Shown: piece after piece, positions 2,187 to 42,637 of the stretch
Layout of the letters: every line of letters begins with the position of its first letter
Numbering within the stretch: position 1 is the stretch's first letter
Source: Escherichia phage vB_EcoS_MM-1
Strand: one strand, 5' to 3'
Sequence record: PV577657
DNA length: 64,000 nucleotides
Made by a program: the position numbers and the translations under genes
The notes under the pieces: model-generated
What the model saw: the letters and a program-made list of their open reading frames with translations, nothing else
The model's database searches: none
What the model was told of the DNA's origin: nothing

Positions 2187-2264
2187 TGGTGGCTCCCCGA
2201 GGATTCGAACCTACGTACCTTCCGGTTATGAGCCGGGTGCTCATACCATATGAGCTTGAGAACC
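2187..2264 (-). tRNA. tRNA with CAU anticodon (Met or Ile2)
   Basis: D-arm GCTC-ATATGGTAT-GAGC, anticodon arm CCGG-CUCAUAA-CCGG, T-loop TTCGAAT, acceptor with two G-U pairs, encoded CCA. Confidence 0.6.
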
Positions 2265-3165: not shown

Positions 3166-4155
3166 ATGACAGAAGAAGTAGCTAAGAGTCCTGAGACCGT
3201 CGCTAGCGTTGCAGCAGAACTGCACCGTCACGAGGAATCAGATAAGAAAAAGTGGGAGAAGGTCAGAGCCTACGAAGAAAAACATCGTGAACACGATGAT
3301 GAAGAAGAAGATGACGATGATGAACATTGTCATAAATATGGAAAACATAAAATGCAAGAACCAGTAAACGTATTCACTAGTGGCTTCCCTGGCCTACTGG
3401 GTGGTTACCCAGCAAACGCAGGTGCTTTCGGTGGTGAAGGTATGGGACTATTCGGAGCTATCCTAATCGGTGCTCTATTAACCGGCGGATTCGGTGGTTT
3501 CGGTGGATTCGGTGGACGTGGTGTAGTTGGTGAAGGTACCGCAGTTGATGCAGTACTTCAGAACCAAGATACCGCTAGTATTCTAGCAGCTATCAACACT
3601 ACTCGTACAGAGGCTAACCAGGGTACTGGAGCTGTTTTAAGCGCAGTTAACAATGGTTTTAGCCAGACAACCCAAAACCAGAGCCGTGATACTCAGTCTG
3701 TACTAACTACGATCTACGGTACAGATGCTAATCTGTCTAATCAGATCTGCCAGGAAACTCGCAACGTTATTCAGGGTCAGTTCGATCTTTCTCGCCAGAT
3801 TGATCAATCTTTCGCAGCTAACCAGATAGCTCGTGCACAAGATAAGTTTGATTCTGCACAGATCGCTTTCCAGCAGACTTTACAAACTAATAACCAGTTT
3901 GCCGCTGTTCAGGCTCAGATGTGTGCTAACCAGAACTCTCTGGAACGTCAGATCGCTGAATGTTGCTGTGAACTTCAGACTGCGATCGCTGGTGTAACTA
4001 CTGCGCGTATCCAGGATGAGTTAGACGCATGTCGCCTACGTGAAGCAATCGCTGCGGGTAGCGGTGCTAACGGTCAGGTAATTAATCAAATCGCTTTAAG
4101 TCTTGGTGCTATCACTCAGACTCTGGCTGGTCTGCAGGCTAAACTGCCGGCTTAA
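3166..4155 (+). CDS. acidic N-terminus / Gly-zipper hydrophobic segment / Q,N,T-rich coiled-coil protein
   Basis: AGGAGG RBS before MTEEV; D/E-rich N-terminus with HCH motif; GGFGGFGGFGG segment; host-optimal codons. Confidence 0.7.
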   Translation: MTEEVAKSPETVASVAAELHRHEESDKKKWEKVRAYEEKHREHDDEEEDDDDEHCHKYGKHKMQEPVNVFTSGFPGLLGGYPANAGAFGGEGMGLFGAILIGALLTGGFGGFGGFGGRGVVGEGTAVDAVLQNQDTASILAAINTTRTEANQGTGAVLSAVNNGFSQTTQNQSRDTQSVLTTIYGTDANLSNQICQETRNVIQGQFDLSRQIDQSFAANQIARAQDKFDSAQIAFQQTLQTNNQFAAVQAQMCANQNSLERQIAECCCELQTAIAGVTTARIQDELDACRLREAIAAGSGANGQVINQIALSLGAITQTLAGLQAKLPA

Positions 4156-4797: not shown

Positions 4798-4810
4798 ACC
4801 AAAAACAAAA

Positions 4811-4843
4811 GCCCCTGCCGAAAGGTAAGGGGCTTTTTCTTTT
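4811..4843 (+). terminator. rho-independent terminator
   Basis: GCCCCTGCC..GGTAAGGGGC hairpin followed by TTTTTCTTTT. Confidence 0.7.
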
Positions 4844-4850
4844 GCCTTAA

Positions 4851-4888
4851 ATACAGAAAAGCCCGCGCTCTCGTAGGAAACGCGGGCT
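4851..4888 (-). terminator. rho-independent terminator for SPFH gene
   Basis: GCCCGCG...CGCGGGC hairpin; T-run on minus strand. Confidence 0.65.
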
Positions 4889-4912
4889 TGGTTCGAAGAT
4901 TACGTGTAACTA

Positions 4913-5860
4913 TTACTTGTTACGCATATCCATGATCATTTGACCATCGTAGCCAGTACCTACCACAGTCTGAGGTACACCACCTTGATACTTCTGAGCA
5001 CGGATCATTTCAACTTCCAGTTGTTTCCAACGAATCATTTCAGGAGTAATGGTACGTTGCAATGCGGCGTTAGCTTCAGCTTCTTTCTTAGCTGCGTACA
5101 GTTTAGCATCTGCGTCACGTTCATTAGCAATAGCTTGGTTGTTACGAGCTTCACGATCTGCTTCTGCTTGTTTAACTTTTTGCTGTGCTTCCTGTTCAAC
5201 GCGAGCAAGTTCAGCTTTCGCAGCATTAACTTGCTCTTCACGAACTTTGGTATTCTGTACCTGTTCCATGATTACTGGCGGCAAGGTAATATCCTGAAGG
5301 AATACCTGCTTAACTGTGTAACCATATGGGCGCGCATACTCTTCAACTTCCTGTTGAATTGCAGTTTGCAATTGAGCCTGAATTTTAGCATCAAATAAAT
5401 CTTGTGCTTTAGGTACAGACTTACCAAACTCACGAATAGTAGACAGTAATTTTTCAGTTACATACTTGTCTAGTGCCTGATCCTGAGTACCTGCGTTAAT
5501 ACGGTTAATCGGTGCTTTAGAACCATCAAACTGCAACATAACAGTCAGGTCAACAGTGGATTTAAACTTATCCTGGCTAGGAACCTGAAGTTTATCTAAT
5601 TTTACAGCAATATCTTTTGTACTAAAAGTATCGAAAGATGCAAACGGGTTTACAAGATGGAAGCCCGGCAATACTGGATTAGGGTCTACTTTACCCAGGA
5701 ATGTTTGGGTTTTAACCGTACCATCAGAAACAATAGTATATGAATTAAAAGCTAGGATTAAACCTGCTAAACCAACTACAGCACCAATACCCCAACGTTT
5801 AATAGTACGAATTACTTTCTGCTCAGAAGTCAGTTCTTTCATATTTTTAGTAGCAAACAT
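4913..5860 (-). CDS. SPFH/band-7 (prohibitin/HflC-like) membrane protein
   Basis: N-terminal TM segment (WGIGAVVGLAGLILAF), SPFH-like core, C-terminal A/E/K/Q-rich coiled coil. Confidence 0.75.
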   Translation of the reverse strand: MFATKNMKELTSEQKVIRTIKRWGIGAVVGLAGLILAFNSYTIVSDGTVKTQTFLGKVDPNPVLPGFHLVNPFASFDTFSTKDIAVKLDKLQVPSQDKFKSTVDLTVMLQFDGSKAPINRINAGTQDQALDKYVTEKLLSTIREFGKSVPKAQDLFDAKIQAQLQTAIQQEVEEYARPYGYTVKQVFLQDITLPPVIMEQVQNTKVREEQVNAAKAELARVEQEAQQKVKQAEADREARNNQAIANERDADAKLYAAKKEAEANAALQRTITPEMIRWKQLEVEMIRAQKYQGGVPQTVVGTGYDGQMIMDMRNK

Positions 5861-5894
5861 ATATTTCCTTTGTTTTAGTTACAGTTAATAAAAT

Positions 5895-5969
5895 TGGCCG
5901 AGGTGACAGGATTCGAACCTGCATAAAGGAATTTAGAAGACTCCTGCCTCTCCCTTAGACTACACCCCG
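5895..5969 (-). tRNA. tRNA-Arg (anticodon UCU)
   Basis: Acceptor CGGGGTG/CACCTCG (1 mismatch), anticodon arm GGAGU-CUUCUAA-AUUCC, T-loop TTCGAAT, encoded CCA. Confidence 0.55.
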
Positions 5970-6472
5970 TTTAAGTATTTTTAAGAACTCTCGTAAAAAC
6001 TCTTAAAAATACAGACGATACCGGGAGAGTCATAAGTCTCACTCATTAAGTATTTCAAGACAAAATACAGTAACGTCTATTATTTTCCAGTTTAAGTCAG
6101 GGTGACTTAGTGGTTATGTCCTGCGGTATATTGAGGACTCGGTTAGGCTTGGGGTCATGACTTCCCACCTTTTGCTGCTACTCAACAGGAGTTATCGCGA
6201 ATTACCTGTGCTATTGTGCACCATTAGTGACATCTCTCATGTCAGCATTTCCCACTTTGTGGATAGCTTGAAAAACTACTCCGATATGGAGAAAGAACTT
6301 CACTATCCTAGAATACCTTCTAAAGTTCTTCTTTAGCCTGGACATAGTTAAATCGTAATAAAACTATTCAGCAGACTGGTTGGTTAGTCTGGAACCAACT
6401 ACCGCGTGGTTTAGGCAGTGCGCAACTAACCTCGGAAGCTTTTATGTTAAAAGCATCAGTTATCCAGTTCTT

Positions 6473-6545
6473 ACCGACCGTAGGATTCGAACCTACATCT
6501 TCCACCAGTTACGGCTTGATAATACCAATTATACTAGGACGGCAG
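6473..6545 (-). tRNA. tRNA-like element (perfect T-arm, no clean anticodon arm)
   Basis: GTAGG/TTCGAAT/CCTAC T-arm with partial acceptor pairing; possibly degenerate. Confidence 0.35.
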
Positions 6546-6744
6546 TGTTACTACATAAGTGATTTCCACACCCCACTATTTATAAATCAGAGAAGAGTTT
6601 AGGGGAGAGGTTTCAGACGCCTCATTTTACACGTTCTAGCCACTAACCGGGATTGCCGCCCCCTGTGTACTAGTTTTACAACTAACCCACCGACTCTATT
6701 CAATGCGCTCCGGTTGGGATTCTGCACTCAGCGTAATCGGCTCG

Positions 6745-6800
6745 CTGTTCCCTAATTTATGAATATATTATACAGAATTTATAAGCATTTAGCAAATGAA
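6745..6800 (-). promoter_or_regulatory. T5-type early promoter driving leftward transcript into noncoding/tRNA region
   Basis: Minus strand TTGCTA -17- TATAAT then ATATTCATAAATTAG. Confidence 0.55.
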
Positions 6801-6803
6801 TTT

Positions 6804-7238
6804 TTAGAAAAATTCACTAGCAATCAAAGCAGTTGTTTTACCGTCATAACGTCCGGGAAATTCTGCCTTAATAGTTTTCATTAATAGAGCTTTGGTAATA
6901 CCTGGGTTTAATTTAACCAGTTCTGCAAAATACTCACGAATCTGAACCTCAGTCAGTTGACTTGGCTGATACTCTTGCAGCATGGAATAAAGCAGTTGCT
7001 CATAGTCTACATCAGTAGGAACTTCCATACCAACTTTAATAGCGCGTTGTTTTGCATTTTCTAGAGCCTTAATCTGAGCTTTCAGATAGGCTACGAACTC
7101 GGTTCGAGTAACAATGTCTTTATCAATACGTTGCAGATCACCAATCATGGTCTGAAGATTAAGTGCCCGTTCCTTATCACCGTGAGTACGTGCTAGACTA
7201 AGTAGTGCACGAAGGGTCATTAGAATATTTTCACCCAT
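6804..7238 (-). CDS. hypothetical protein
   Basis: 144-aa ORF, no recognised motif. Confidence 0.7.
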   Translation of the reverse strand: MGENILMTLRALLSLARTHGDKERALNLQTMIGDLQRIDKDIVTRTEFVAYLKAQIKALENAKQRAIKVGMEVPTDVDYEQLLYSMLQEYQPSQLTEVQIREYFAELVKLNPGITKALLMKTIKAEFPGRYDGKTTALIASEFF

Positions 7239-40798: not shown

Positions 40799-41288
40799 TT
40801 TCAAATTGCCCGTATATGCTTTACGGGCTTTTGTATCAATTGAGCAAGAAGGTGATTATTCCGTAATTACAACAAGATATAATAAATATGTACTAGATAA
40901 CAGGAAGTTGCCTGGCACTTTTTCTCAACGTAGGCTTATTCTATTTGAGAAACGGAAAGAATTACCATATAAGCTCTATCCTATTAGGGGCAGAATATCC
41001 ATGTTGTCTCAATTAGTTGGGTCAAAGCGTAGCCAATTTATAGATTCTGATGGAAATCTTATTAACTGGAAGAAAACTACGTTTTATGATGTTGTCACCT
41101 CTAAAGTTTTGCATTCAGCTAGAATTTACAACGGAAAATACCAATGCTATGTAGCTAAAGTTCCATATCCATTTGTATTATCCTATGTTCCAGCTTATAT
41201 AAGCTATATTCTGGTAAATAATAGCCCTGTTATTTACCAAGTCCATCAAGAGGAGCCTGAAATTCCTAGACTTAGAATAAAATTATGA
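40791..41288 (+). CDS. hypothetical protein
   Basis: 165-aa ORF between polymerase and helicase. Confidence 0.65.
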   Translation: MLDFKLPVYALRAFVSIEQEGDYSVITTRYNKYVLDNRKLPGTFSQRRLILFEKRKELPYKLYPIRGRISMLSQLVGSKRSQFIDSDGNLINWKKTTFYDVVTSKVLHSARIYNGKYQCYVAKVPYPFVLSYVPAYISYILVNNSPVIYQVHQEEPEIPRLRIKL

Positions 41289-42637
41289 AGGTTGTTATAT
41301 CTAATAAAGCCTATTTCAAGCCCGATGATGAACTTTGGGATTATTGTAGTAAACAAACCACTTATCACATTGAGACAATGACTAGTAAATACCCTATTAT
41401 GTATAAGAATAGTGGTGTTGTTGCCAAAGAGATTAAGTGGATTCCTATCACGCGTCTGGATTTACTAGATGCTAAAGGAGTAAAATACGAATTAGTCGAT
41501 AAACGCACATTAGCTCCAGTAGATATACCAAGACCTAAGTTCAAGCTGCGTGAAGAAGACCAGCTCCCAATATATGAAGAGTGCGATGATACCTGTATTA
41601 TTAATGGTAAGCCTGGATTTGGCAAAACTATCCTAGCCCTGGCACTTGCGTATAAATTTGGCCAGAAAACTTTGGTAATTTGTACCAACACATCTATTCG
41701 TGAAATGTGGGCGGCAGAAGTTCGTAAATGGTTTGGGTTTGAACCAGGTATCATAGGTTCTGGAAAATACAATATTGATCCACCAATTGTGGTCAGTAAT
41801 ATTCAAACAGTGAATAAACATGCGAATAATCTTTCTAAAGTATTCGGTACTGTTATAGTTGATGAAGTTCACCATTGTGTGGCTACAACTTTCACTAACT
41901 TCCTAGAAATATCATGTGCTCGCTATAAGATTGGGCTATCTGGAACATTAAAACGTAAAGATGGTCTACAAGTTATGTTCAAAGATTTCTTTGGATATAA
42001 GATCTTTAGCCCACCGGTTAATAATACTGTTGCACCTACAATCCATAGGTATTCCGTACCTGTTGAGTTATCAGGAAATCAGAATGTGCCATGGGCATTA
42101 CGTGCTAACGATGTATACAACCATCCTGAGTATCGAGAGACTATTATAAATCTAGCACATTTATACGTGAATATGGGACATAAAGTACTCATTGTAAGTG
42201 ATAGAACAGAGCTAATCCAAACAGTACTAGAAGCTCTTACACAACGTGGTGTTACAACGTATGAAATTATAGGGGCAACCCACTTGGATGACCGATTAAA
42301 AATTCAGGAAGATATAGCAAAAGGTGGACCTTGTGTACTTGCAGCCGCTCAAAGTATCTTCTCTGAAGGTATTTCTCTTAATGAGTTGTCTTGTTTAATA
42401 ATGGGAAGTCTTATTAATAATGAGTCTCTCATTGAACAGCTTGCAGGTCGTGTTCAACGTATTGTTGATGGTAAACTCGACCCGATTGTTGTAGATCTAA
42501 TTATGAAAGGTGGCACTGGGCTAAGGCAGGCTTCTGGACGTATGGCAGTATATCGTAACAACGGGTGGAAAACTATTACTATGACTCCAGAGAAAGCAGT
42601 TCAATTAGCTAAAATTGCATTTGGCAACAGCTCATAA
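41285..42637 (+). CDS. SF2 DEAD/DEAH-box helicase
   Basis: Walker A GKPGFGKT, DExH box VIVDEVHH. Confidence 0.85.
   Translation: MKVVISNKAYFKPDDELWDYCSKQTTYHIETMTSKYPIMYKNSGVVAKEIKWIPITRLDLLDAKGVKYELVDKRTLAPVDIPRPKFKLREEDQLPIYEECDDTCIINGKPGFGKTILALALAYKFGQKTLVICTNTSIREMWAAEVRKWFGFEPGIIGSGKYNIDPPIVVSNIQTVNKHANNLSKVFGTVIVDEVHHCVATTFTNFLEISCARYKIGLSGTLKRKDGLQVMFKDFFGYKIFSPPVNNTVAPTIHRYSVPVELSGNQNVPWALRANDVYNHPEYRETIINLAHLYVNMGHKVLIVSDRTELIQTVLEALTQRGVTTYEIIGATHLDDRLKIQEDIAKGGPCVLAAAQSIFSEGISLNELSCLIMGSLINNESLIEQLAGRVQRIVDGKLDPIVVDLIMKGGTGLRQASGRMAVYRNNGWKTITMTPEKAVQLAKIAFGNSS

Follow-up and report, generated by a model that had tools for sequence, protein, structure and literature searches.

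The RNAX locus of T5-like phages

We analysed 64,000 nucleotides of Escherichia phage vB_EcoS_MM-1 (sequence record PV577657), the whole of which is called the window below, with attention to an interval that is read leftward from a promoter to a tRNA-Arg(UCU) gene and that is the RNAX gene of T5-like phages, a feature already on record. Positions 5861-6803 (943 nt) form the longest interval in the window that lacks an open reading frame (ORF) of at least 61 amino acids on either strand, the runner-up being 457 nt long, and contain only ORFs of 25-60 amino acids. This bears out an earlier interpretation made from the letters of this DNA alone (the sequence-only reading), which had singled the region out as free of ORFs. 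The leftward promoter proposed there is also present. It is a sigma-70-type early promoter (6767-6795, minus strand) with the -35 element TTGCTA at 6795-6790, a 17-nt spacer and the -10 element TATAAT at 6772-6767, and it matches 10 of 12 consensus positions. Transcription is expected to start near 6760, as deduced from the promoter spacing. The tRNA-Arg(UCU) gene at the other end of the interval (5895-5969, minus strand) encodes its own CCA and is recognized by both ARAGORN and the Rfam tRNA model.

In the T5 record (AY543070), positions 40848-41566 on the minus strand are annotated as a misc_RNA, 'rnaX / RNAX, stable RNA with unknown functions', lying between 'promoter P 16-17' and tRNA-Arg. 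The promoter in the window is the counterpart of promoter P 16-17, and the locus is orthologous in both position and sequence (promoter P 16-17, rnaX, tRNA-Arg), the aligned part of rnaX being 93% identical. The T5 annotation thus supports the earlier proposal of a promoter-driven, leftward non-coding unit that ends at tRNA-Arg and constitutes a stable-RNA locus. The RNAX annotation is also present in phage DT571/2. A 1-kb query around the feature has 441 matching phage records by megablast, and in Escherichia phage T5_ev212 the identity is 100%; a more sensitive search returns 525 phage records with similarity to RNAX, all of them T5-like as judged from their names or genome sizes. RNAX is approximately 790 nt long in the phage type of the window and approximately 720 nt long in T5.

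The T5 annotation comes without a structure, a domain map or a family assignment. We found no paper on RNAX, and a paper on Schlafen that mentions a T5 non-coding RNA is silent on it. What is newly defined here is the anatomy of RNAX, which consists of a conserved core with a swappable tRNA-like domain; the locus itself is rediscovered.

A conserved core of two stacked three-way junctions

The comparison covered the genera Tequintavirus, Epseptimavirus, Sugarlandvirus, Hongcheonvirus and Novosibvirus. Distant relatives were included in the form of Yersinia phage phiR2-01, Pectobacterium phage DU_PP_V (Hongcheonvirus), Proteus phage PM135 (Novosibvirus), bacteriophage Eos, and viral and metagenome contigs. 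Conserved blocks and swapped modules together make the interval a mosaic in Tequintavirus, Epseptimavirus and Sugarlandvirus, and the best-conserved block surrounds a tRNA-like element. This block is the core domain of RNAX (6576-6406, 171 nt; all RNAX coordinates from here on are on the minus strand), which was delimited by alignment, pair counts and a covariance model, and which comprises the helices P1 to P5.

P1 (6576-6573 with 6409-6406) closes the core with 4-6 bp and reads GUGG/CCAC, UGGG/CCCA or ACGG/CCGU across three clades. The junction strand GGUGU (6572-6568) leads from it into P5 (6567-6564 with 6437-6434), a helix of 3-4 bp that is GGAA/UUCC in the T5 type and CGAA/UUCG elsewhere. 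P2 plus P2a (6563-6550 with 6468-6455) is long and contains conserved C-C and G-G mismatches; its distal three pairs make up P2a, for which seven different triplets occur, all of them fully complementary. P3 (6454-6438) and P4 (6431-6414) are hairpins, and the loop of P4 tolerates inserts of up to approximately 58 nt. The strand UAAA (6413-6410) completes the circuit back to P1. These helices are arranged as two stacked three-way junctions, P1/P5/P4 followed by P5/P2/P3, the latter without linker nucleotides. The unpaired strands GGUGU, AACACUG, AAGA and UAAA are near-invariant, with AAGA identical in all 31 distinct cores. One of the hairpins that had caught the eye in the sequence-only reading, GCTTTTA...TAAAAGC, is real, lies at 6438-6454 and is P3 of this core.

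The evidence for the fold is comparative. It was drawn from an alignment of 31 distinct sequences (A2) in which two variable inserts were cut out by script and the remainder aligned; a MAFFT alignment of the full-length cores (A1) was set aside because it misplaced the 3' end. Over a set of 27 pairs drawn from P1, P2, P3 and P4, 90% of cells are paired, as against 30-39% when the partners are slid. Analysis of covariation across related phages, a check put forward with the sequence-only reading, finds changes on both sides in 15 of these 27 pairs (shuffle mean 9.1; none of 500 shuffles reaches 15), with a covariation score of 0.425 compared with 0.18 in shuffles, and finds such changes in the tRNA-like cloverleaf as well (see below). 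When the J3/4 columns are re-aligned and P5 and an extra pair, 22-61 (A-U or C-G in 31 of 31 sequences), are included, 98% of cells pair, 51 of them as G-U. These 51 cells would be A-C mismatches on the opposite strand, which identifies the minus strand as the RNA strand. The core covariance model scores 82.5 bits at 6400-6584. On this comparison, the core fold is conserved and supported by covariation from T5 to the phages of Klebsiella, Pectobacterium and Proteus.

Several other structural candidates were rejected. An alternative P1, GUGUGG/CCACGC, taken from the minimum free energy (MFE) fold, does not hold for the Proteus and Epseptimavirus types; GUGG/CCAC, by contrast, covaries. A pseudoknot between GUGU and ACAC shows no covariation and leaves three mismatches uncompensated; its strands were also judged too distant to pair within one molecule. 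An apparent A-A/U-U covariation flanking P4 is inconsistent (U/U 15, A/U 9, A/A 6, U/A 1). Resemblances to kink-turn, loop-E and tetraloop-receptor motifs, noticed by eye, do not hold, and in a hammerhead-like CUGAUG...GAAA arrangement the CUGAUG positions are variable and the GAAA does not come after stem II.

No reading frame is open across the core in all lineages. An Rfam scan at permissive thresholds, which the sequence-only reading had also recommended, returns two tRNA matches and otherwise only noise such as Hrs13 and mir-3167; the core matches no Rfam family. The covariance models of GOLLD and ROOL find no match in 5880-6830 at E values up to 10, and no curated Rfam model of a riboswitch, T-box or known self-cleaving ribozyme matches. 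Neither ARAGORN nor Rfam detects a tmRNA, which would combine a tRNA-like domain formed from both ends with a tag frame.

A tRNA-shaped domain at the tip of P2

The tip of P2 carries a tRNA-shaped domain (6472-6543) that is recognized by the Rfam tRNA model and by covariation of its cloverleaf. The model (RF00005) scores 35.5 bits at 6543-6472, above its gathering score of 29, and skips the anticodon arm as an 18-nt local insertion, in keeping with the earlier description of a tRNA-like element that has no clean anticodon arm. ARAGORN makes no tRNA call on this element. Like a canonical tRNA, the domain has acceptor, D and T arms, the D-loop GG (G18-G19) and the T-loop UUCGAAU. It departs from a canonical tRNA in the remaining parts. 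Instead of a 5-bp stem with a 7-nt loop, its 'anticodon' arm has a 3-bp stem and a 6-nt loop in the window, and across lineages stems of 3-6 bp and loops of 5-6 nt with variable sequence. It also has neither a CCA nor a free 3' end, as the 3' strand of the acceptor runs directly into AAGA and the 3' strand of P2, and in several lineages it is represented by plain hairpins. The domain is not a decoding tRNA.

The cloverleaf is nevertheless maintained. Twelve of its 18 pairs are altered on both sides, with covariation in the acceptor, D and T stems, and none of 500 shuffles reaches this number. The signal is apparent even among close relatives of T5, for example at an acceptor position where U-U has become A-U or U-A. 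The sequence-only reading had suggested that the stretch could hold decayed tRNA genes. This does not fit what we observe: only one tRNA-shaped element is present, it is under purifying selection with compensatory changes, and it is one part of a larger fold that itself covaries.

The strands that flank the domain, AACACUG (6549-6543) and AAGA (6472-6469), are near-invariant, and the domain itself can be exchanged. EPS7-type phages have a 45-nt two-hairpin remnant in place of the tRNA shape, closed by CCAGA/UCUGG, the PM135 type has a single hairpin, and two further contigs carry other hairpins. In all of these the core around it is unchanged. The tRNA shape is thus widespread and probably ancestral, yet replaceable, and the core is the constant part.

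Three metagenome contigs, L060, L056 and L066, are natural recombinants that exchange modules. L060 combines a T5-type core with a Klebsiella-type, long-armed tRNA-like insert. L066 fuses an Epseptimavirus-type 5' half to a T5-type 3' half, and its C18-G pair in P5 is broken.

Ends and accessory modules of RNAX

Outside the core, RNAX begins with a 5' clamp hairpin of 13 bp, H0 (6582-6760), whose strands at 6760-6748 and 6594-6582 pair the ends in the MFE fold. In T5 proper H0 has a 5-nt loop, reads AUAAAUUAGAGAG/CUUCUCUAAUUUAU and lies directly past the promoter; other isolates have UUAGAUG/CAUCUAA. The window variant differs from the annotated T5 RNA by an insert of approximately 150 nt in the H0 loop (6747-6595), which is present in the phage type of the window, partly present in EPS7 and absent from T5. 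This insert contains an ORF for a very basic peptide of 42 amino acids (6599-6727) that is annotated as a coding sequence in one GenBank record.

Downstream of the core lies a group of accessory hairpins (6279-6399), namely GUUGGUU/AACCAAC at 6399-6379, AGAAGAACUU.../AAGUUCUU at 6334-6290 and CUCC/GGAG at 6291-6279. Block maps of the mosaic show that they occur in some lineages and are exchanged for other modules elsewhere. Changes such as AGAA/UUCU to AGGC/GCCU are visible by eye in the alignment. The hairpin TTGGTT-AGTCTGG-AACCAA, placed by the sequence-only reading near 6390-6415, is real and lies at 6380-6398. The two hairpins noticed there thus differ in kind, P3 being part of the conserved core and this one a lineage-variable accessory.

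RNAX ends with a conserved 3' module (5974-6107), made up of a short hairpin H1 (AGUCA/UGACU, 6107-6095), the single-stranded segment UAAACUGGAAAAUA, a lineage-specific middle and a long terminal hairpin H4 (6013-5974). The module is approximately 80-90% identical between T5-like and Klebsiella phages and has stops in all three sense frames. RNAalifold predicts only H1 and H4 in it, neither with changes on both sides, and the lineage-specific long-range helices of the module were seen by eye only. H4 stands a few nucleotides ahead of tRNA-Arg and is also found in Pectobacterium phage DU_PP_V. Its sequence (5974-6013 in the window; L049 approximately 4005-4050) is near-invariant on both strands from T5 to the Pectobacterium phages, and the role of the hairpin may depend on its sequence, as a binding site for protein or in the DNA itself, instead of on structure alone.

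The Proteus-type relatives have an ORF with its own Shine-Dalgarno sequence beginning 25-45 nt past the core (L051 approximately 190-1, minus strand; L055 approximately 8134-7736, minus strand; L048 7458-7790, plus strand). These ORFs encode a Cys-rich protein of 132 amino acids and an unrelated protein of 110 amino acids, and none of them appears in the annotation of PM135 itself.

Distribution and dispensability

With the distant relatives added, the core is found in every lineage, and the covariance model detects exactly one core per phage; neither the rest of the 64-kb window nor 22 kb of the T5 tRNA region yields a further hit. In the phage collection, 525 records have RNAX similarity, compared with 529 that have the neighbouring T5-type metallopeptidase. 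A degenerate pattern of the 5' strand retrieves only T5-like contigs, and no distant relatives, from viral and metagenome collections, and has no match in 185,579 bacterial and archaeal species represented by one genome each. The core likewise has no match in 5,426 complete E. coli genomes.

The deletion mutant T5 st0 (AY692264) lacks the locus. At its deletion junction the gene that follows tRNA-Asp is joined to a truncated T5.081 (L070 7668-7847), and the deletion of approximately 8.2 kb removes RNAX, tRNA-Arg, the SPFH gene described below and about nine other tRNA genes. The covariance model finds no core around the junction. As T5 st0 is viable, RNAX is not needed for growth on laboratory hosts.

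Neighbouring genes

The transcription unit ends (4859-5860, minus strand) with a gene for an SPFH/Band_7 membrane protein (5860-4913; Pfam Band_7, E = 2e-17) and an intrinsic terminator at 4889-4859. The latter was identified by a terminator scan, and the T5 record has an 'efficient bidirectional rho-independent terminator' there. Weak Rfam matches to anti-hemB and ctRNA_p42d at 4803-4888 fall on this bidirectional terminator hairpin past the SPFH gene, and we regard them as noise from a strong GC-rich hairpin.

Just upstream of the RNAX promoter is a gene for a protein of 144 amino acids (6804-7238, minus strand) that many records label 'tRNA amidotransferase' or 'YqeY'. Its match to Pfam YqeY is only 18 bits, under the cut-off of 27. 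The gene does not hold this position in the T5-like phages of Klebsiella, and its product is therefore not a constant partner of the RNA. Elsewhere in the window, the Rfam tRNA model scores 40.3 bits at 2190-2264 (minus strand), where ARAGORN makes no call; this site adjoins tRNA-Ser(GCT) and corresponds in position to tRNA-Ile2 (CAU) of T5.

Comparison with known RNAs

GOLLD and ROOL are 'ornate' RNAs of phages and prophages, hundreds of nucleotides long and of unknown function, that lie beside tRNA islands; the linker of GOLLD sometimes includes tRNAs, and ROOL is a non-essential RNA (PMC12286853). RNAX resembles them in being phage-encoded, in lying beside a tRNA island, in being several hundred nucleotides long and in combining conserved with variable regions. 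It differs in its fold of two stacked three-way junctions, its much smaller core and its lack of a match to their Rfam models, and in its host phages, which are virulent Demerecviridae of enterobacteria.

A second parallel is provided by species 1 and 2 of phage T4 (rnaC and rnaD), which are stable RNAs of unknown function encoded immediately next to tRNA-Arg within a phage tRNA cluster. The sequence of rnaC ends in the T-arm-like GGGUUCGAAUCCCGG. Unlike RNAX, which is upstream of tRNA-Arg, the T4 RNAs lie downstream of it, with lengths of 119-139 nt. In rnaC and rnaD the core model reaches no significant score, the best being 8 bits. In the T4 record (AF158101; L069 4909-5248), the placement of rnaD and rnaC beside the tRNA-Arg gene echoes the neighbourhood of RNAX and tRNA-Arg(UCU).

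In the mascRNA of MALAT1 and in the bacterial Y-RNA-like YrlA, tRNA enzymes recognize a tRNA-shaped module that forms part of a longer non-coding RNA. In MALAT1, RNase P sets an RNA end, and YrlA mimics the elbow formed by the T and D arms. The tRNA shape of RNAX differs in sitting on the tip of an internal helix, to which its acceptor end joins it. YrlA has no Rfam match in our scan.

Proposed role of RNAX and alternatives

We propose, with a probability of about 0.6, that RNAX is a non-coding RNA of approximately 790 nt which is transcribed, jointly with tRNA-Arg(UCU) and the SPFH gene, from an early sigma-70-type promoter, and which serves, by way of a core with a grafted tRNA shape, as a stable accessory RNA that would bind a partner. 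It probably acts in trans, a role that we favour because the sequence after the core varies between lineages. From what is generally known of RNA processing in E. coli, RNase P would cut at the 5' end of tRNA-Arg and so release the 3' end of RNAX. H0 and H4 would shield the RNA from end-dependent decay, and such protection by terminal hairpins would account for the 'stable RNA' label. The tRNA-like elbow of T and D arms would offer a grip to the tRNA machinery, with RNase P as the likeliest user, or to another tRNA-binding factor. Cleavage by RNase P at G6543 would yield a nicked, two-piece RNA held together by P1, P2 and P5. The junction strands of the core and the loop at the tip of P2 probably form the functional site for a partner, and RNAX as a whole would be an accessory factor, relevant in nature and not in the laboratory. 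It is conceivable, though we would not lean on it, that the core represents a new class of structured RNA acting on tRNA or translation. Such an RNA might dock tRNA-Arg(UCU) or tRNA-processing enzymes through the AACACUG/AAGA loop and the tRNA elbow, or multimerise like GOLLD and ROOL, and might confer an accessory advantage in nature, for example against host defences that target tRNAs.

A number of points weigh against the proposal of a stable, structured accessory RNA. The variation comes from only about 6-8 independent lineages and some column pairs covary spuriously, for which reason we place weight on stacked, antiparallel runs of compensated pairs rather than on isolated columns. A P5 pair is broken in the recombinant metagenome sequence L066. 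The folding energy is no better than that of shuffled sequences (core, z = -0.04; whole RNA, z = -0.79), which makes the evidence for structure comparative and not thermodynamic. H4 is conserved in sequence without changes on both sides, and may have a DNA-level or protein-binding role. The 'stable RNA' label rests on a GenBank annotation that lacks a reference, and no paper on RNAX was found to stand behind it. Both trans action and the existence of a partner are things that we infer. Finally, the constant place of RNAX upstream of tRNA-Arg(UCU), the tRNA that comes first after the core in 7 of 8 loci scanned and in the window, would also fit a role in cis.

The main competing explanation takes up this last point. 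The core would be a cis-acting leader, working as a sensor, as a processing or stability element, or as a riboswitch- or antitermination-like element in the maturation or expression of tRNA-Arg(UCU) and the SPFH gene, and the invariant AAGA could offer an AGA codon to the anticodon of tRNA-Arg. The core does lie 35-180 nt past the promoter, and its junction strands are near-invariant, as they are in aptamers, AAGA being the same in the 31 cores. We nonetheless consider a leader unlikely, as what follows the core differs between lineages (hairpins over 430 nt, an ORF that is unrelated and has a Shine-Dalgarno sequence to itself, or a tRNA-Arg 120 nt further on), no terminator/antiterminator alternative is seen past P1, no Rfam riboswitch or T-box matches, and the T5 record names the product a stable RNA. 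Less probable again is a self-assembling 'ornate' RNA in the manner of GOLLD and ROOL, that is, a tRNA-island RNA with a covalently linked tRNA-like domain whose homo-oligomers would act on tRNAs or ribosomes. Its size of 720-790 nt, its phage origin, its tRNA-island setting and its conserved and variable modules would suit this idea, as would the dispensability of RNAX in T5 st0, which recalls the non-essential ROOL, and the tRNAs that the linker of GOLLD carries at times (PMC12286853). The junction GUGU also complements the ACAC of the distal P2 loop, from which it was judged too far along P5 and P2 for pairing within one molecule. This complementarity, however, has three single mismatches that are uncompensated and shows no covariation, the GOLLD and ROOL models detect no similarity at E values up to 10, and Proteus-type phages have a compact version of approximately 150 nt without the large accessory part.

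Two further explanations were weighed. The interval might be debris of decayed tRNA genes and processing spacers that has no function in its own right, as the frequent recombination of the tRNA cluster, the label tRNA-OTHER or tRNA-Pseudo given to the element in several records, and its dispensability in the laboratory would allow. This we regard as very improbable in view of the single match to the tRNA model in the interval, the flanks, which are better conserved than the tRNA-like body and persist after its replacement, the compensatory changes that keep every helix, and the retention of the element in approximately 525 of 529 T5-like records. Nor do we give any real credence to the interval encoding small proteins, or to the tRNA-like element being a working non-canonical tRNA. 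Some GenBank records do annotate ORFs of 42-60 amino acids, and in some phages the element is called tRNA-Ser, Sec, Pro or Leu by different tools; but no frame is conserved across lineages, the 150-nt part with the 42-amino-acid ORF is absent from T5, the anticodon loop is variable and only 5-6 nt long, and the element lacks CCA and continues on its 3' side into P2.

Implications

RNAX is present in approximately 525 of 529 T5-like genomes and yet is dispensable under laboratory conditions, the pattern that marks an accessory function with importance in nature. T5 has long served as a model phage, and current work treats its tRNA region as an arsenal for counter-defence. T5 st0 offers a ready-made RNAX-null strain, and in combination with a defined core, a secondary structure, coordinates and variants with swapped domains, it makes the function of RNAX directly testable. 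RNAX would add an example from virulent phages of enterobacteria to the small group of large phage RNAs from tRNA islands, alongside GOLLD, ROOL and T4 species 1 and 2.

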